From NCBI RefSeq assembly GCF_055900595.2, contig NZ_CM148325.1: a stretch of DNA of 64,000 nucleotides. One strand, given 5' to 3'. The notes under the pieces are model-generated. The model saw only the letters and a list, made by a program, of their open reading frames with translations, was not told the origin of the DNA and did no database searches. The position numbers were made by a program, and so were the translations under genes. Positions 15,910 through 24,892 of this stretch are shown in pieces. Within the stretch, counting starts at the first letter, position 1, and every line of letters begins with the position of its first letter.

Positions 15910-16058
15910 ACAAGGGTAAGGGAGGATTTCTCCCCCCTCTGAATTGGTTGTTAATAAGCCTGGAAACTTACTAGTAACAACACAATCAGTATGATGACGA
16001 ACTTCATCATAACCCTTTCCTTCTATAAGGCCCCTTCTTCGGGAGGGGCTTTCCCGTT
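15910..16058 (+). ncRNA. sibD: Sib-family antisense antitoxin RNA (predicted), fully overlapping ibs copy 1
   Basis: Plus-strand promoter TTGACG(15875-80)-17nt-TAAAGT(15898-903); hairpin gcccct-tcttcggg-aggggc at 16029-16049 followed by T-rich tract. Ends approximate. Confidence 0.5.
15951..16010 (-). CDS. ibsD: Ibs-family type I toxin, 19 aa (MMKFVIILIVLLLVSFQAY)
   Basis: Minus-strand ATGATG at 16010, stop at 15951-15953; hydrophobic peptide matching the Ibs toxin pattern; symbol by position (ibsD/ibsE assignment uncertain). Confidence 0.7.
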   Translation of the reverse strand: MMKFVIILIVLLLVSFQAY

Positions 16059-16286
16059 TCAGCCCCTTGCTGACTCCCCGATTGTTGATGAGCGCCAGAC
16101 CCCGCGCAATGCTTTCCCAGAGGCAGTTTTGCCTTCCCCGAGCAGTCACGCAAAACGCTGCAACAGCCTGATCATTTGCAGTTTTTTGTGGAACACAGAT
16201 ATAAAAAATCCCCGGTTTTTTGGGCCAGGGATATGTGTTAATGAAACCTTCTTGACGCTGATTTTTTTTCAACCTAAAGTAAAGGA

Positions 16287-16434
16287 ACAAGGGTAAGGGA
16301 GGATTTCTCCCCCCTCTGAATGGCCGTTAATAAGCGTGGAAACTTATCAGTAACAGCACAATCAGTATGATGACGAACTTCATCATAACCCTTTCCTTAT
16401 GTAAGGCCCCTTCCTCGGGAGGGGCTTTCCCGTT
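16287..16434 (+). ncRNA. sibE: Sib-family antisense antitoxin RNA (predicted), copy 2
   Basis: Promoter TTGACG(16252-57)-17nt-TAAAGT(16275-80); terminator hairpin 16405-16425 + T tract. Ends approximate. Confidence 0.5.
16327..16386 (-). CDS. ibsE: Ibs-family type I toxin, 19 aa (MMKFVIILIVLLLISFHAY)
   Basis: Second repeat copy; minus-strand ATGATG at 16386, stop 16327-16329. Confidence 0.7.
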   Translation of the reverse strand: MMKFVIILIVLLLISFHAY

Positions 16435-16624
16435 TCAGCCCCTTGCTGACTCCCCGATTGTTGATGAGCGCCAGACCCCGCGCAATGCTTTCTCTTATGC
16501 AGTTTTCTCTTCCCCGAGTTGGCTCGCAAAACGCTGTAACAACCTGATCATTTGTACTTTTTAGCGGAACGCAGATATAAAAAATCCCCGGCTTTTTGGG
16601 CCAGGGATGTTCATAGTTGAAAAT

Positions 16625-18301
16625 TTATTCTATGTTTTCTGCGACGGGAGTTGTTGAGGTTAAGGGTGAAGTCAATGCCGCCAGTGAGCCGCCTGAAACG
16701 CCAATTTCATTGAGCAAGGAGTCAATCAGCGGTGCCTGTGTGCGGTAAGAAAGGGCGGCAGACAATGCCTGTTCTGCCAGGTTTCCGCCACTAACGCTGC
16801 CTGATGCCGCATCCCCCGCAGCACCACCTCGGTTTAATCCATCGACCTGAATAATCTTGATGCCGTCAATGGACTTCATCGGCTCAACGGATTTCTCTAT
16901 TACTGCAGGTAACGACTGTAATAGCGCCAGTTTGAATTTAAGGCTGGTTTGCTCGTCAGAAAGTACGTTGATAGCGTCGTTCAGCGCACGTTGCGCTTCT
17001 GCTTCCGCCAGGCCTTTTTTGCGTGTTGCTTCGGCTAACTCAACGATCGCCGCCGCCTGCATCTCTGCGGCTTCTTTCTCTGCGGCTTCTTTCTCTGCTT
17101 TCGCCCGCACGGTCAGTTCAACCGCTTTGGTTTCTGCATCCTGCGCGGCAGCGATTAGGGCAACTTGTTTAGCACGATCGGCTTCTGCGGTCTGGCGAGT
17201 GGTTTCTACGTTTTGCTGGGCGCTTACCGCTTCTGCAAGTGCAAGGTTGGCACGCGCTTCCGCTTGTGACTGCTGTTCCGATTTGGCGGCAATAGCGATC
17301 GATTTCGTCTGGTTGGCGATTTCGGTGACCTGCTGCTGTTCGATCTCTTTAATGCGAACTTCACGTTCAGCTTCAACTTTTCTGGAACGGACGACCTGTT
17401 CGCGGTCGATTTCCGTTTCCTGAATCTGTCGTTCAGCCAGAATTCGCGTCTGCTCTGCTTCCCGACGACGCTCGGCCTCAAAAGCCGCAATTTTCGCATT
17501 CTGCTCAGCGGTACGGGTTTTAACCTGCTGCTCCTGCTCAAGCGTCATAAACGCTTCTTGCTGTTCAATCTCCAGCTTCCGCGAAAGCGCATCACGGTTT
17601 TTCTCACGCACCGCAACTTCTACATCCTGTTCAACTTCGTTACGTTCGCGACGACGGCGCTCCGTCTCCTGCGTCAGCTTGGTTAAACCTTCGGCGTCAA
17701 AGGCGTTGTTAGGATTGAAATGTTCCTTCGACGTCTGGTTAAAGTTGGTAAGTGAAACGCTTTCCAGTTCCAGGCCGTTTTTCGACAGATCTTCAGCAAC
17801 GGTATTTTGTACGCCCTGCACGAAGTTCTCGCGGGTATCCTGTAACTCATGCATGGTCATTTGTGCAGCTGTTGCACGGAGGGCATCGACAAATTTATCT
17901 TCAACCAACATACGTAAGTCTTCAGGCGACAGGGTGCGTTGCCCCAGCGTCTGGGCGGCGGTGGCAATACCTTCCACTGACGGTTTTACCCGCACAAAGA
18001 AAGCGACAACGACATCGACGCGCATACGATCTTTCGTAATCAGGCTATCAATGGTTGAGCGGCTGACTTCCAGCTTCAGAGTATTCATATTGATGGGGAT
18101 TATTTCATGAAAGATCGGCATCACGATTGCGCCACCGCTCATTACCACTTTTTGCCCACCTAAACCAGTACGAACAAAAGCTTGCTCTGCCGAAGCGCGA
18201 CGATAGAGCCTGGCGAAAATAATTCCAATAATAAACAGAATGCATACGGCAATAATTGCGGTAAACATCCAGGAGGGCACAGAATTAACAATATCATCCA
18301 T
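16625..18301 (-). CDS. yqiK: SPFH/band-7 (flotillin-like) membrane protein YqiK
   Basis: 558-aa ORF; N-terminal TM, SPFH domain, long Ala/Glu/Gln-rich coiled-coil. Confidence 0.85.
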   Translation of the reverse strand: MDDIVNSVPSWMFTAIIAVCILFIIGIIFARLYRRASAEQAFVRTGLGGQKVVMSGGAIVMPIFHEIIPINMNTLKLEVSRSTIDSLITKDRMRVDVVVAFFVRVKPSVEGIATAAQTLGQRTLSPEDLRMLVEDKFVDALRATAAQMTMHELQDTRENFVQGVQNTVAEDLSKNGLELESVSLTNFNQTSKEHFNPNNAFDAEGLTKLTQETERRRRERNEVEQDVEVAVREKNRDALSRKLEIEQQEAFMTLEQEQQVKTRTAEQNAKIAAFEAERRREAEQTRILAERQIQETEIDREQVVRSRKVEAEREVRIKEIEQQQVTEIANQTKSIAIAAKSEQQSQAEARANLALAEAVSAQQNVETTRQTAEADRAKQVALIAAAQDAETKAVELTVRAKAEKEAAEKEAAEMQAAAIVELAEATRKKGLAEAEAQRALNDAINVLSDEQTSLKFKLALLQSLPAVIEKSVEPMKSIDGIKIIQVDGLNRGGAAGDAASGSVSGGNLAEQALSAALSYRTQAPLIDSLLNEIGVSGGSLAALTSPLTSTTPVAENIE

Positions 18302-18327
18302 TATTAAATTTCCTTTTGATTAATAAA

Positions 18328-18957
18328 TTACAGTATTTGGGGCCAGGGTTTTTTTTTCGCCAAATATCGCGTTGCAGAAAGTCGGCAAATAATTAATACT
18401 TTGTCTCCTTTAGTGAAAGTTTTTTCTTCTTCAGGTTCCAGTAGTAAATAATGTATTTGGCCAAATTGATCGGTGAGTTTTCCTTCACAGGGGTTACCTG
18501 AAGTGGCCTGATGTCCGGTAATTAATGCCATGCAGCCAATATATTCTTCTTCTGTAATAGCTGAACTATGGTCGCGTGGAATCCAGGGCGCAACTATTTT
18601 ACCGGTATAATGCACCGCAATAATCGTTAGCAGTAAACTGACAGGAACCACAAACAGATTTGTGAGTGGTGATTGCCAGACCATGATGCAGACCTGCTGT
18701 AGCAGGATGCCAATAAGGCCAAAAAAACCAGCATGTAAGCAGAGAACGACGAGAGCTGGCAATCTTCCAAAATTGAGATAATGAAGTGCCTGGCTAATAT
18801 GACCTGTGGTTATGGAATCATAATGGTCAAGATGTGCATCAAGAGCACCGGAAAGCATGTGACCGCAGATAAGTGCAAAAATTTCTAAAAGGCCGATCAA
18901 AAGTACAAAAGAAATAGCGAAAAGATAAGGGGTGTTATAGTCAGCGAATAAAATCAT
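18328..18957 (-). CDS. yqiJ: NfeD-like inner membrane protein YqiJ (partner of YqiK)
   Basis: 209-aa membrane ORF immediately upstream of yqiK in the same orientation. Confidence 0.82.
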
Positions 18958-19226
18958 ATGTCACTCCAATGTCCATTTAGTGACGCAATATTTATTTTGC
19001 GATAATTTCCTTGCTTACATTTATCTTTGTTAATAATAACACATGTTAGCGATGTTCTGAAAGAGAAAGTCTTTTAATGTTGTTTTTTTATTTTTCACTA
19101 AAAAGTGTGATCGGGAACAATATATTTACGCACGTTATGTTTAAAGGCACTACACTGATTGGGGAATACTGAAATCAGAAAAAGCATATGGCCTTAAAAG
19201 GTATGCGATAACCGGAGGATGTGCTT

Positions 19227-19427
19227 ATGGATCATAGTCTTAATTCTTTAAATAACTTCGATTTCCTGGCGCGTAGTTTTGCCAGAATGCACGCAGAAGG
19301 TCGCCCGGTCGATATTCTGGCCGTTACTGGTAACATGGATGAAGAACATAGAACCTGGTTTTGCGCACGTTATGCCTGGTATTGCCAACAGATGATGCAA
19401 ACCAGAGAACTGGAATTAGAACATTGA
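19227..19427 (+). CDS. glgS: surface composition regulator GlgS
   Basis: 66-aa [32 protein letters not shown]... Confidence 0.85.
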
Positions 19428-19431
19428 TATT

Positions 19432-19454
19432 ACGGGCCGTCTGGCCCGTTTTTG
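19432..19454. terminator. bidirectional Rho-independent terminator between convergent glgS and ubiK
   Basis: acgggcc-gtct-ggcccgt stem-loop followed by TTTTG. Confidence 0.5.
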
Positions 19455-19461
19455 TGGTGCT

Positions 19462-19761
19462 TTATTCTGCTTTATCAACCGGCGGGATAGCTGGAGGAGA
19501 TTGAAGTTCTGCTACCGGATTATTGCGCGCTTCCAGTTCGCTGATGCGTTGTTCCAGTAACGCCAGTTTTTCACGAGTCCGTAACAGGACTTGCGTCTGA
19601 ACGTCGAATTCTTCGCGGCTTACCAGATCGAGACGCGTCAACTGCGCTTGTAGGGTTTGGCGGATTTTTTTCTCCACATCTTCCCCGAACTCCCTGATTC
19701 CTTTAGGCATTGATTCGTGAACCTGGCGAGCGATTTGCTCAATTTTTTTCGGGTCAATCAT
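19462..19761 (-). CDS. ubiK: ubiquinone biosynthesis accessory factor UbiK (YqiC)
   Basis: [35 protein letters not shown]...; coiled-coil BMFP-like; start chosen internal to the 119-aa track ORF. Confidence 0.8.
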
Positions 19762-19883
19762 TGTAGTTTCCCTGTACTGATAGGTGTTGAGTGCCATTGT
19801 AGTGCGATAAGGGTAAGTCATAAACCAGAATTATGTGAAGCTATGCGTTGCTGCCGCTAATCATTAGCGTTATAGTGAATCCG

Positions 19884-20134
19884 CTTATTCTCAGGGCGGG
19901 GCGAAATTCCCCACCGGCGGTAAATCAACTCAGTTGAAAGCCCGCGAGCGCTTTGGGTGCGAACTCAAAGGACAGCAGATCCGGTGTAATTCCGGGGCCG
20001 ACGGTTAGAGTCCGGATGGGAGAGAGTAACGATTCTGTCGGGCATGGACCCGCTCACGTTATTTTGGCTATATGCCGCCACTCCTAAGACTGCCCTGATT
20101 CTGGTAACCATAATTTTAGTGAGGTTTTTTTACC
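19884..20134 (+). promoter_or_regulatory. FMN riboswitch (RFN element) in ribB leader (sroG region)
   Basis: Conserved RFN aptamer motifs (ttctcagggcggggcgaaattcccc...ggacagcagatccggtgtaattccggggccgacggttagagtccggatgggagag); preceded by promoter TTGCTG(19848)-17-TATAGT(19871). Confidence 0.75.
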
Positions 20135-20788
20135 ATGAATCAGACGCTACTTTCCTCTTTTGGTACGCCTTTCGAACGTGTTGAAAATGCACTGGCTGCG
20201 CTGCGTGAAGGACGCGGTGTAATGGTGCTTGATGATGAAGACCGTGAAAACGAAGGCGATATGATCTTCCCGGCAGAAACCATGACCGTTGAGCAGATGG
20301 CGCTGACCATTCGCCACGGTAGCGGTATTGTTTGCCTGTGCATTACTGAAGATCGCCGTAAACAACTCGATCTGCCAATGATGGTAGAAAATAACACCAG
20401 CGCCTATGGCACCGGTTTTACCGTGACCATTGAAGCGGCTGAAGGTGTGACTACCGGTGTTTCTGCCGCTGACCGTATTACTACCGTTCGCGCAGCGATT
20501 GCCGATGGCGCAAAACCTTCTGATCTGAATCGTCCTGGCCACGTTTTCCCACTGCGCGCGCAGGCGGGTGGTGTGCTGACGCGTGGCGGCCATACTGAAG
20601 CGACTATTGATCTGATGACGCTGGCAGGCTTTAAACCGGCTGGTGTGCTGTGTGAGCTGACTAATGACGATGGCACGATGGCGCGTGCACCAGAGTGCAT
20701 TGAGTTTGCCAATAAACACAATATGGCGCTCGTGACTATTGAAGACCTGGTGGCATACCGTCAGGCACATGAGCGTAAAGCTAGCTGA
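20135..20788 (+). CDS. ribB: 3,4-dihydroxy-2-butanone-4-phosphate synthase
   Basis: 217-aa [45 protein letters not shown]... Confidence 0.92.
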
Positions 20789-20820
20789 AAACCGCTGCTT
20801 AATTTACCGCGTTAATCAAT

Positions 20821-21528
20821 AAATATCCTCCGGCATAGCCGGAGGTTTTTCAAATGCGCCTGTAAGGCTCTGTTACCAGCCGCGCCCTAACAGGCGCATA
20901 CGATCTGACATTTGCATTCAACTTCGTTACTTACGGCCCGTAAACGGGCTGCCCGGATATGGAATCGATAACTGCTCCCCCATTTTATCCTCTTCAAGCT
21001 GGTGCTTTATGTAGTCCTGTATCTTCGCCGTGTTCTTACCCACCGTATCGACATAGTACCCTCGGCACCAGAACTCCCTGTTTCTGTATTTGAATTTCAA
21101 ATCCCCAAACTGCTCGTAAAGCATCAGACTGCTTTTCCCTTTCAGATATCCCATAAAGCCGGATACGCTCATTTTGGGTGGGATTTCCACAAGCATATGG
21201 ATATGATCTGCGCAGCACTCTGCTTCCAGAATCCGTACGCTTTTCCACTCACACAGCTTTCTCAAAATACTGCCTATCGCCCTACGCTTCTCTCCGTAAA
21301 ACGCCAGTCTTCGGTATTTCGGCGCAAAAACTATGTGATATTTACAGTTCCAGCGGGTGTGCGCTAAGCTCTTTTCGTCCCCCATTGGGACCCCCTTTTG
21401 ATTTCTTGTTTGACACTTGCAGTTGCCAGACCGCAAGGTGTTTTAACAAATCAAAAGGGGTTTTAATAACTGGCTCAAAGCTGAAAGCTTTCCGGAACCC
21501 CCAGCCTAGCTGGGGGTTTTCTGTGCAC
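20821..21528 (-). mobile_element. IS200 insertion sequence (~708 bp); ends inferred (+/-20 bp)
   Basis: 152-aa IS200 TnpA; left end (high coordinate) inferred from hairpins at 21495-21517 and 21391-21460, which match the recalled IS200 leader positions (nt 12-34 and 69-138). Confidence 0.65.
20927..21385 (-). CDS. tnpA: IS200 transposase TnpA (Y1/HUH)
   Basis: MGDEKSLAHTRWNCKYHIVFAPKYRR...HIHMLVEIPP...; 152 aa from second in-frame ATG. Confidence 0.9.
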   Translation of the reverse strand: MGDEKSLAHTRWNCKYHIVFAPKYRRLAFYGEKRRAIGSILRKLCEWKSVRILEAECCADHIHMLVEIPPKMSVSGFMGYLKGKSSLMLYEQFGDLKFKYRNREFWCRGYYVDTVGKNTAKIQDYIKHQLEEDKMGEQLSIPYPGSPFTGRK

Positions 21529-21530
21529 AA

Positions 21531-21565
21531 GAAACCGAAGCTATTACTGGCTTCGGTTTTTATTT
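21531..21565 (+). terminator. Rho-independent terminator, probably the native ribB terminator displaced by IS200
   Basis: gaaaccgaagc-tattactg-gcttcggttt followed by TTTATTTT, immediately outside the inferred IS200 left end. Confidence 0.5.
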
Positions 21566-21761
21566 TGCTCTTGTTATGCAAGATGTTAATTCCTCTTCTC
21601 TTTCTATGAGAAAATTTCATTAATATCAGGCATTCTTTTCCATTATGATCAAAATCATATAATTGTTCCGTTATTATGCGACCATATGAATATATCCGAA
21701 AAAGGATATGTGAATTTTATGCGCTAAATGTTTAGTATTGTTAAATATTAAGGGTAAAAGG

Positions 21762-21932
21762 ATGTTTATCGCCTGGTACTGGATTGTATTGATTGCTCTG
21801 GTTGTGGTGGGTTATTTACTGCATTTGAAACGTTATTGTCGGGCGTTTCGTCAGGACAGAGACGCACTGCTTGAAGCGCGGAATAAATACTTAAACAGTA
21901 CGAGAGAAGAGACAGCCGAGAAGGTAGAATAG
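21762..21932 (+). CDS. small (56 aa) single-TM membrane protein, unnamed
   Basis: RBS aagggtaaaagg-ATG; N-terminal hydrophobic helix then charged tail; followed by a 12-bp-stem hairpin (21950-21980). Confidence 0.4.
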   Translation: MFIAWYWIVLIALVVVGYLLHLKRYCRAFRQDRDALLEARNKYLNSTREETAEKVE

Positions 21933-21949
21933 GGCTTTAGTGAAGCTGG

Positions 21950-21980
21950 CAGAAGTTGTCCATGCGCTGGACAACTTCTG
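21950..21980. terminator. bidirectional terminator hairpin between small ORF and zupT
   Basis: cagaagttgtcc-atgcgct-ggacaacttctg perfect 12-bp stem, T-rich 3' flank. Confidence 0.55.
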
Positions 21981-21989
21981 ATGTTGCTT

Positions 21990-22763
21990 TTAACCAATTC
22001 CCGCCGTTTGTAGTAGCACTAAACTGAATCCCATCACTGACATTCCACATAGCACGCCATAGCTGGGGTTATTATTGGGGTCAATCTCTTTAGCTAGCGG
22101 CATTAATTCATCAACCGAGAGCGCCACCATAATTCCTGCAACCGCCGCCATGATTGCCGCCATGACCACCGGAGAAATCATGCTACCGAGGATTAACCAC
22201 GCCAGAACACCACCAAGAATTTCTGCCAGCCCAGAAATGCCCGCCCACAAAATTGCGGTGCGTTTTGACCCCGTTGCCGCGTAAACCGGCCCCGCAACTG
22301 CCAGACCTTCAGGAATATTATGCAATGCAACAGCCAGCGCGATGCCAAAGCCCAGCTCCAGGTTACTGCTCGCCGTGACAAAGGTGGCAATGCCTTCCGG
22401 GAAGTTATGCAGACTGATGCCGAGAGTGAGCAGAATGGCTGTGCGCTTGATCGATTTTGGCAACGGCTGCACCGATTTTTGCATTAAATCCTGCGGATGC
22501 GCATGTGGCAACATGCGGTCCAGACCAAAATAGCCAAGCAGACCGAAGATAAACATTCCATAACCCAGCACAGGCGACATTCCTTCGGCGGCTAATGCGG
22601 CAGGAAGCATTTCCATTAATGAGATGAGCAACATAATCCCCGCCGCAAATCCTAGCGAAAACGCCAGTAAGCGGTTCGAGGGTTTTTGTCCGAGAACGCC
22701 GAGAAACGCGCCAATAAACGTGGCTGCCCCCGCCAGTATGGTCAGAATGAGAGGTACTGACAT
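21990..22763 (-). CDS. zupT: ZIP-family zinc transporter ZupT
   Basis: 257-aa membrane ORF from [20 protein letters not shown]... Confidence 0.88.
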
Positions 22764-22878
22764 CGACAACTCCTTATAAATCTTTACCTTCAGGCAGATC
22801 GTCAAAATAACTGATGATCATCATCATTGTTATCCGGGTTCTTACTCCGCCGAACAAGCGTATTGTGAGGATATCAAA

Positions 22879-23694
22879 ATGACACCTTTAGTTAAGGATA
22901 TCATCATGTCTTCAACACGTATGCCAGCATTGTTTTTAGGTCACGGTAGTCCGATGAACGTGCTGGAAGATAATTTGTATACCCGCAGCTGGCAGAAGTT
23001 GGGGATGACATTGCCACGCCCGCAAGCGATTGTTGTGGTTTCGGCTCACTGGTTTACCCGTGGAACTGGAGTGACCGCGATGGAGACGCCGCCCACGATT
23101 CATGATTTTGGCGGTTTTCCGCAGGCGCTGTACGACACCCATTATCCTGCTCCGGGTTCGCCTGCGCTGGCACAGCGTCTGGTTGAGCTGTTAGCGCCGG
23201 TCCCTGTGACGCTGGATAAAGAAGCCTGGGGCTTTGACCACGGTTCCTGGGGCGTGCTGATTAAGATGTATCCTGACGCCGATATCCCGATGGTGCAGTT
23301 GAGTATCGACAGTACCAAACCTGCCGCCTGGCACTTTGAGATGGGGCGTAAACTGGCGGCTCTGCGAGACGAAGGAATAATGTTGGTCGCCAGCGGTAAC
23401 GTGGTGCATAACCTGCGTACGGTGAAGTGGCACGGTGATAGTTCACCGTATCCTTGGGCGATGTCGTTTAATGAGTATGTGAAAGCGAATCTGACGTGGC
23501 AAGGACCGGTAGAACAGCATCCTCTGGTGAATTATCTCGACCATGAAGGTGGCGCGTTATCGAACCCAACGCCAGAGCACTATCTGCCGTTGTTGTATGT
23601 CTTAGGTGCGTGGGATGGGCAGGAGCCAATTACCATTCCGGTCGATGGTATAGAAATGGGCAGTTTAAGTATGTTGTCGGTGCAGATAGGCTAA
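22879..23694 (+). CDS. ygiD: 4,5-DOPA dioxygenase extradiol-like protein YgiD
   Basis: ORF ...MPALFLGHGSPMNVLED...; start could be the internal ATG at 22909. Confidence 0.8.
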   Translation: MTPLVKDIIMSSTRMPALFLGHGSPMNVLEDNLYTRSWQKLGMTLPRPQAIVVVSAHWFTRGTGVTAMETPPTIHDFGGFPQALYDTHYPAPGSPALAQRLVELLAPVPVTLDKEAWGFDHGSWGVLIKMYPDADIPMVQLSIDSTKPAAWHFEMGRKLAALRDEGIMLVASGNVVHNLRTVKWHGDSSPYPWAMSFNEYVKANLTWQGPVEQHPLVNYLDHEGGALSNPTPEHYLPLLYVLGAWDGQEPITIPVDGIEMGSLSMLSVQIG

Positions 23695-23731
23695 TAATTA
23701 CCGGATGGCGAGTGCCATCCGGTATCATGGC

Positions 23732-24892
23732 TTATTCAACAAAAATATGTGGATAAAACCGAGACATATCCTGGGTGATCAATGCACGGTCTTCACGAAT
23801 GCCAATTCCGGCAGGTTGATCGTTCACCAGCCAGCTACCAATCAGCATATAGCTATCGCCGAATTTTGGTAACGGGTGGAATTGCTGAACAATCATCCCT
23901 TCTTCGCCATACGGACCTTCTGCTGCTTCAATGGTTTTGCCGTTCTCAATGATCGACACGTTTGCGCCTTCACGGGAGAAGATCGGTTTAACCACATATT
24001 TTTCCATTTGCGGATGATCATCTTCCGCAAAATAAGCGGGCAGCAGGTTCGGGTGATTCGGGAACATCTCCCACAGTAGCGGCAGAAGCGCTTTGTTGGA
24101 GATAATGCTCTTCCACGCCGGTTCCAGCCAGCGTACGCCTGCATCCTCCAGCTTGGTGGAGAACATCTCACGCAGCATAAATTCCCACGGATACAGCTTG
24201 AACAGGTTAGAAATCACCTGATCCTGTAAATCCGTGAACTGACCTTTTTCGCCTAAACCGATATCGTCGATGTAGAGGAATTCAGTAGCGATTTCAGCTT
24301 CTGTCGCGCAGTCCTGCAAATACTGAATGGTTCCGCGATCTTCCACCGTGTCGCGACAGCAGGTGAGATGCAGCAACTGGAAGCCATACTGTTCACGCAG
24401 CTGGACAAAGCGATCGATCAGCTTCTCTTGCAGACTGTTAAACTGGTCGCTGCCTTCCGGCAGGTTACCGGCGTTAAGCTGATCTTCCAGCCAGATCCAC
24501 TGAAAGAATGCGGCTTCATACAGTGACGTTGGCGTATCGGCGTTATTTTCCAGAAGTTTAGGTTCGCCAGTACCATCCCACGCCAGATCAAGACGCGAAT
24601 AAAGCGATGGCTGGTGAGTCAGCCATGACTGGCGCACAAAACTCCAGGTGTGTTTTGGAATGCGGAATTTGGTCATCAGCTCATCGCTGGCGATCACTTT
24701 TTCAACCACTTTCAGGCACATCTGGTGCAGTTCGGCGGTGACTTCTTCCAGCTTTTCAACCTGGGAGAGGGTCAACTTGTAGTAAGCATCTTCACACCAG
24801 TATGGCTCTCCGTACATGGTGTGAAAATTGAAACCGTATTCGTGGGCTTTTTCGCGCCAGTCCGGACGCTCGGTAATACTGACTCTTTCCAT
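23732..24892 (-). CDS. ygiC: glutathionylspermidine synthase-like ATP-grasp protein YgiC
   Basis: 386-aa [35 protein letters not shown]... Confidence 0.88.

Follow-up and report, generated by a model that had tools for sequence, protein, structure and literature searches.

An intact IS200 element joined to the reverse face of the ribB terminator in Escherichia coli

The window analysed here, a stretch of 64,000 nucleotides from contig NZ_CM148325.1 of NCBI RefSeq assembly GCF_055900595.2, includes the interval of E. coli that comprises ubiK, the FMN riboswitch, ribB, yqiD and zupT, and the same set of genes is found in the syntenic records of E. coli Z0117EC0005 and K-12 W3110. Downstream of ribB, which codes for 3,4-dihydroxy-2-butanone-4-phosphate synthase, the small gene yqiD is uninterrupted, and a Pfam search with its product returned no match. 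A 13-pair hairpin at 21950-21980, unrelated to the insertion described below, lies between the convergent stop codons of yqiD and zupT and is probably the terminator that these two genes share. Between ribB and yqiD the window contains a complete copy of the insertion sequence IS200, the features of which are collected together with those of its surroundings in Table 1.

Table 1. Features of the ribB-yqiD interval, with positions in the 64,000-nt window (a slash marks a junction between element and flank)
Feature	Position	Strand	Evidence
FMN riboswitch, 5' of ribB	19883-20031	+	Rfam RF00050, 120.9 bits; annotated riboswitch in syntenic RefSeq records
ribB (3,4-dihydroxy-2-butanone-4-phosphate synthase) CDS	20135-20788, stop codon 20786-20788	+	ORF list; annotated ribB in Z0117EC0005 and K-12 W3110
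Remnant of the native 3' untranslated region adjoining ribB	20789-20817	+	Same sequence as the empty site as far as the junction
Complete IS200, 711 bp	20818-21528	-	Reads GTGCACAG...GGAGGATATTTATT; empty-site deletion, ends common to 13 copies, tandem IS1541 junctions
Right-end subterminal hairpin CCTCCGGC-TAT-GCCGGAGG (element strand)	Stem-loop 20827-20845, with TTTTT 20846-20850 on plus	both	-15.9 kcal/mol; terminator-like on both strands
tnpA, 152-aa Y1 (HUH) transposase	20927-21385 including stop codon	-	ORF list, Pfam, motif residues
Long inverted repeat, stem-loop hiding the ribosome-binding site	21392-21460	-	-34.8 kcal/mol, z = -4.65, 0/200 shuffles as stable
Rfam STnc490 (RF01405), full model length	21395-21518	-	146.4 bits, E = 3e-31; gathering score 56
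Left-end perfect hairpin AACCCCCAGC-TAG-GCTGGGGGTT	21496-21518	both	-18.7 kcal/mol; 0 matches in 100 window shuffles
Target TT	21529-21530	-	Flank ...GCTTCGGTTTCTT/, element joined 3' of TT; empty site CGGTTTCTT/GATTAAC
Native ribB intrinsic terminator, intact, displaced	21530-21571	+	14-pair stem 21530-21561 and T-rich tail; -20.3 kcal/mol, z = -5.27
yqiD, 56-aa small protein, downstream neighbour, uninterrupted	21762-21932	+	Annotated in Z0117EC0005 and K-12 W3110; clean translation

A query of 1,551 nt spanning positions 20400-21950 was compared with a set of 5,426 complete E. coli genomes. Of these, 5,425 have matches to the flanks, with the two flank pieces lying approximately 840 bp apart as against the 1,551 bp found here; none of the 5,426 genomes has an IS200 at the ribB site, or any single place covering at least 80% of the query. 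Removal of 711 bp from the window recovers the ribB-yqiD interval of strain Z0117EC0005 with no mismatch in 3,128 bp. This exact deletion test was used to position the gap, a MAFFT alignment of the window with the empty sites having misplaced it. Four registers satisfy the test, from 20817-21527 to 20820-21530, and registers beyond this range fail. The ambiguity arises because the trinucleotide CAA (TTG on the minus strand) is present at both junctions, and owing to these three nucleotides the empty site by itself neither fixes the register nor strictly excludes a duplication of 2-3 bp.

The ends of other copies were used to choose among the four registers. The 13 further E. coli copies compared, which lie at unrelated loci and are bordered by unrelated DNA, all read TT/GTGCACAG...GGAGGATATTTATT/, with the right tail being ATATTTATT/. 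The junctions of tandem copies of IS1541 in Yersinia pestis read ...ATATTTATT/GTGCCCAG with a single TT, which argues against the duplication of TT. Taken together these comparisons favour a minus-strand element at 20818-21528, running from GTGCACAG to ATATTTATT, with a range of +2/-1 on this register, and the exact gain of 711 bp relative to the empty site corresponds to an insertion without target-site duplication. An earlier note on this DNA, prepared from the letters alone, had predicted the left end near 21528, which is the end best supported here (the empty site permits 21527-21530). It had also proposed that IS200 lies between ribB and its terminator, and comparison with empty sites, including that of K-12, bears this out, in that 711 bp have been cleanly added between the stop codon of ribB and the terminator hairpin; the proposal is correct because the native terminator is the hairpin at 21530-21571. 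The span given for the locus, 20821-21565, encloses features that are all real and were located to within 1 nt, but its start falls about 3 nt inside the element.

The only ORF of the element with a family match is tnpA, and tnpB is absent. The 152-residue product on the minus strand, correctly recognized from the sequence as an IS200 TnpA, matches the Pfam family Y1_Tnp (PF01797, "Transposase IS200 like") with 126.5 bits and E = 8e-37, against a cut-off of 23, and is identical to WP_000502112.1 annotated in other strains. Its HUH motif takes the form HIH at residues 61-63, and it possesses Y125, the residue whose replacement in the Y125F mutant yielded a catalytically dead enzyme in a study of IS200 (PMC4513863). 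The two ends, GTGCACAGAAAA... and ...GGATATTTATT, form no inverted repeats; instead a different subterminal hairpin is found at each, and both hairpins are preceded by a run of A. The perfect hairpin near the left end had been noticed before at 21495-21517, one nucleotide away from its actual position. The long inverted repeat sequestering the ribosome-binding site, formerly placed at 21391-21460, is likewise present, at 21392-21460, and folds with the Shine-Dalgarno sequence GGGGG (21391-21395) within its 3' arm.

Numbering the element from 21528 as nucleotide 1, the left-end hairpin occupies nt 11-33 and the stem-loop nt 69-137, as compared with nt 12-34 and nt 69-138 for the left-end hairpin and the 5'UTR stem-loop of the Salmonella IS200 (PMC4513863). 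In Salmonella this hairpin is a bidirectional terminator that blocks incoming transcription (PMC4513863), and it is presumed that the corresponding hairpin of the present copy is also the one bound by the transposase. The STnc490 model of Rfam is matched here on the tnpA-sense strand, with the left-end terminator hairpin being included in the match. STnc490/art200 has been described as antisense to the tnpA 5'UTR (PMC4513863), i.e. on the strand opposite to that of the Rfam match, and by analogy with that description we infer that the antisense RNA art200 would be templated by the plus strand at the stem-loop, spanning about 21377-21466.

Thus, the element shares with the IS200 of Salmonella enterica and E. 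coli a single 152-aa Y1/HUH transposase, a size of about 0.7 kb, the lack of terminal inverted repeats, a left-end terminator hairpin and a Shine-Dalgarno stem-loop at the published positions, and the STnc490/art200 region, while differing from the Salmonella element in length (711 bp here, 707 bp as given there). Copies with 100% nucleotide identity to it are present in RefSeq records of E. coli, and what is new is its location at ribB. In every tested respect it is an intact IS200, belonging to the IS200 group of the IS200/IS605 family, and no degenerate relic. Both the element and its position next to a terminator are of an already known kind, and in this sense the case is an ordinary one.

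In the empty site the stem of the native ribB terminator starts 30 nt past the ribB stop codon. The strong hairpin and T-tract just outside the element, reported previously at 21531-21565 and interpreted as the displaced ribB terminator, prove to be precisely that, in that the stem at 21530-21561 adjoins ribB in the empty site. Between the window strain and K-12 the stem (21531-21561) is kept, whereas the loop and upper stem differ (GCTATTACTGGC versus GTTGTAGCAGGC), a pattern consistent with selection on structure rather than on sequence. Both strands of the terminator show a hairpin with a T-rich tail after it, the minus-strand tail being TTTCTT; on that strand it reads AAAAACCGAAGCCAGTAATAGCTTCGGTTTCTT/, and the element is joined exactly there. 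At most of the comparison loci the element is co-directional with the upstream gene and lies after the terminator of that gene, but at ribB it is the reverse face of the terminator that has been used. Because the terminator can be read as a hairpin with a T-rich tail on either strand, use of its reverse face has resulted in the element separating ribB from its own terminator.

This arrangement recurs at other insertion sites. Just outside the left end of all 13 E. coli comparison copies we found a GC-rich hairpin with a T-rich tail ending in TT. Scanning one genome per species with the exact 19-nt left-end hairpin CCCCCAGCTAGGCTGGGGG gave at least 120 loci, and the matches listed come from Yersinia pestis, Vibrio, Brenneria, Dickeya, Edwardsiella, Oxalobacter, Mailhella and Desulfovibrio, as well as from MAGs assigned to Bacillota, Peptococcaceae, Saccharibacteria, Elusimicrobia and other groups. 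Among these listed matches, the 10-12 nt that separate the 19-nt hairpin from the tip of the element vary by lineage. The last 40 nt of 111 distinct left-end flanks among the matches listed have a mean folding energy of -18.9 kcal/mol, versus -7.4 kcal/mol in 495 control windows taken 150-550 nt further upstream in mostly coding DNA (Mann-Whitney p = 1e-53). A stable hairpin ends 0-9 nt before the T-rich junction in 110 of 112 flanks among the matches listed (with the junction re-placed); the loose hairpin criterion is also passed by 166 of 500 controls and is therefore not very specific, so that the distribution of folding energies is the figure to trust. A strict detector, demanding a perfect stem and a tail of at least 60% T, recovered 57 of the 111 flanks among the matches listed and passed over many others with obvious hairpins, and was replaced by folding energy and the distance to the hairpin foot. 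The flank carries T at position -2 in 107 and at position -1 in 89 of these 111 cases. Right-end flanks, in contrast, do not have the hairpin pattern (mean -6.0 kcal/mol, n = 39 flanks). We considered the idea that the upstream hairpins are themselves part of the element and rejected it, since their sequence changes from locus to locus and the empty site already contains the ribB hairpin.

The Yersinia pestis element IS1541 resembles the present one in its left-end hairpin and in the right-end hairpin with its tail, and differs in the first bases of its left end (GTGCCCAG as opposed to GTGCACAG), in its host and in its copy number. Among the matches listed, the left-end flanks of IS1541 in Y. 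pestis NCTC5923 show the same pattern of hairpin and T-run. In 1998, Odaert et al. reportedly found that 8 of 14 IS1541 sites have terminator-like stem-loops, which they proposed as hot spots. At three loci of NCTC5923 (L109, L110 and L112) IS1541 occurs in tandem, with the right end of one copy abutting the left end of the next as ...GGAGGATATTTATT/GTGCCCAG. Such a junction has the sequence that would be expected of an excised circle, or else of an insertion against the right-end hairpin of another copy, and is no proof of mechanism. A further observation concerns MAGs of Ruminococcus/Eubacteriales (L044, L099-L102, L105-L107; L041, L097, L098, L103, L104), in which either ATGCTTATT or TATTTCTTT comes after the 19-nt hairpin, with unrelated DNA beyond. 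This geometry of a hairpin with a 9-nt T-rich tail resembles the IS200 right end, and to judge by this likeness a related element in these MAGs may use the 19-nt hairpin at its other end.

Terminator-like sequences have recently been found to be over-represented upstream of insertion sequences, most strongly so for the IS200/IS605 family (preprint 10.1101/2025.07.22.666184), and when we searched the literature for an explicit target rule for the IS200 group this statistical statement was all that it gave (10.1101/2025.07.22.666184). The register of hairpin, T-run and TT/ that is seen across phyla is sharper than what we found in print, and constitutes an extension rather than a new kind of thing. 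As a terminator hairpin is the type of site that IS200 targets, the position of the insertion downstream of ribB is no coincidence.

The link between left ends and terminators could alternatively be a matter of survival after random insertion, with copies persisting where they are harmless to the host and where tnpA is silent, rather than of target choice by the transposase. The preprint itself takes the pattern to reflect contexts in which transposase expression is limited and persistence is favoured (10.1101/2025.07.22.666184), and most of the insertions are indeed intergenic, past the ends of genes. Against survival stand the nucleotide-precise position of the junction among the matches listed, 0-9 nt past the hairpin and always after TT, the confinement of the hairpin to the left-end side in a single orientation among the same matches, and the presence of the pattern also in copies that are 100% identical and apparently recent. 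Selection alone is not expected to fix the register of a junction, which weakens this explanation, and we regard it as rather unlikely. Positions of IS200 copies are not all harmless: next to the copy at clcB/bioD of Z0117EC0005, clcB is annotated as a C-terminally truncated pseudogene, and a copy in strain KTa008 splits the gene for the small subunit of a prophage terminase; this second copy also supplies one of two flanks in which the hairpin is no more than weak.

Target choice by the transposase can be pictured by analogy with the better-studied elements IS608 of Helicobacter pylori and ISDra2 of Deinococcus. By that analogy the Y1/HUH transposase would excise one strand as a circle, which would re-insert into single-stranded DNA without target duplication; at ribB, joining would have taken place 3' of the TT that closes the T-rich tail TTTCTT in the minus-strand reading of the terminator. 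Like these elements, the present one carries subterminal hairpins at both ends, leaves its target unduplicated, and is joined 3' of a specific short sequence lying against its left end. In IS608 the transposase binds the subterminal hairpins, and guide sequences 5' of the hairpin feet read the cleavage and target sites (PMC3201880). In a like manner to these guide and cleavage sequences, the A-run just 5' of the foot of the left-end hairpin of IS200 might pair with the T-run of the target. On the minus strand the right-end hairpin is followed by ATATTTATT, up to the right-end cleavage site, which is thus 9 nt from the hairpin foot as compared with 10 nt in IS608 (PMC3201880). The corresponding distance at the left end is about 10 nt here and 19 nt in IS608. 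The target likewise differs, being a T-run ending in TT beside a host hairpin rather than the TTAC or TTGAT of IS608/ISDra2, and unlike those elements the present one has no tnpB.

The host hairpin with its T-tail resembles the element's own right end, and this likeness may explain both the requirement for a hairpin and the occurrence of tandem copies. We tentatively propose that transposases of the IS200 group pick their targets by structure, the terminator hairpin and T-tail in single-stranded DNA mimicking the right end (hairpin plus ATATTTATT/) and the A-run guide pairing with the T-run, and that the right-end hairpin then restores termination for the gene that has been cut off, with the rule extending from Enterobacteria to Bacillota and Desulfovibrionaceae. 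Under this proposal, since the terminator-like right-end hairpin can be read on both strands, termination would be restored as at ribB and insertions would be nearly seamless as regards transcription. We hold the proposal in its entirety to be a reasonable possibility that still falls somewhat short of being probable.

With regard to replication, the GC skew of the plus strand is positive in seven of the eight 8-kb bins of the window and -0.001 in the bin with the element (16001-24000). This positive skew suggests that the plus strand is the leading strand, and the tnpA-sense strand is therefore placed on the leading-strand template. IS608 and ISDra2 show a preference for the lagging-strand template (PMC3201880, PMC5371812); the orientation of the present element is opposite to that bias, which a single copy cannot test.

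Five other strains have copies with 100% identity to the 711 bp, at unrelated loci that adjoin clcB/bioD, paaY, hrpA, ydgJ/add and a DUF905 gene, respectively, whereas 31 mismatches (about 4% divergence) separate the element from the copy labelled IS200C in RefSeq. Strain Z0117EC0005, which has identical flanks, carries 17 copies of IS200, yet its site at ribB is empty. More generally, the related strains have 15-17 copies, compared to a median of two among E. coli genomes with any copy. These sequence comparisons suggest that the copy at ribB has probably transposed recently.

Elements of the IS200/IS605 family excise seamlessly (PMC3201880), and because of this the empty site alone does not give the direction of change: the element could in principle be ancestral at ribB and have been lost elsewhere by precise excision. 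However, the 5,426 genomes, drawn from all lineages, include no occupied site, the copy matches others elsewhere with 100% identity, and its flanks are those of a strain in which the site is empty, all of which makes an ancestral element very improbable. To an assembly artefact, in which a repeat has been misplaced, we likewise attach very little weight. IS200 is admittedly a multi-copy repeat, with the 15-17 copies of related strains, and the insertion is seen in this sequence alone; but the junctions follow the rules of the family, namely TT/G on the left, ATATTTATT/ on the right, a hairpin and T-run beside the left end and a gain of exactly 711 bp, and one would hardly expect a misjoin to bring all of them about together. 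In E. coli Ecol_745 (NZ_CP015074.2, 1343037-1343091) similarity stops at the ribB stop codon, and an operon coding for pilus, chaperone and usher proteins replaces yqiD-zupT. This was considered as a second insertion-sequence event at the same site and rejected: synteny is broken here beside a fimbrial operon, and no IS200 is annotated at this break.

The hairpin at 20827-20850, which had earlier been left as either a ribB terminator or part of the IS200 right end, is on comparison of copies the right-end hairpin of IS200 and no native ribB terminator: all 13 further E. coli copies have it unchanged, and the empty site lacks it. That it should nevertheless be the native terminator, with the right end of IS200 beyond it, is scarcely credible in spite of its location 38 nt past the ribB stop codon and its plus-strand likeness to a good intrinsic terminator, as none of the other E. 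coli genomes examined has it at the empty site, 13 IS200 copies from unrelated loci carry it without a base change, and the right end maps to 20818 (range 20817-20820) rather than after 20850. An intact and probably recent IS200, inserted against the reverse face of the ribB terminator, is hence the best overall explanation of the locus, and one that we consider very probable.

As for the consequences, the sequence suggests that ribB transcripts now probably end at the right-end hairpin and its U5, CCUCCGGCAUAGCCGGAGG-UUUUU, 38 nt past the stop codon. With this, ribB would probably retain an efficient terminator and a 3' untranslated region similar in length to that in the empty site, where 30 nt precede the native stem, and ribB expression is therefore probably little changed; indeed the expression of both ribB and yqiD is likely to be nearly unchanged by the insertion. 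On the other side of the element, the native terminator and the left-end hairpin together would form a double barrier, which we infer to shield tnpA from outside transcription and yqiD from transcription exiting the element.

For the IS200 group as a whole, the rule of hairpin, T-run and TT, with its 110 of 112 flanks among the matches listed, offers a testable account of how targets are chosen. For E. coli, the unique site at ribB, the complete identity to copies elsewhere and the lineage with about 17 copies argue for recent movement of IS200 in some lineages. This fits poorly with the dormancy usually ascribed to the element (PMC4513863; 10.1101/2024.06.26.600842).
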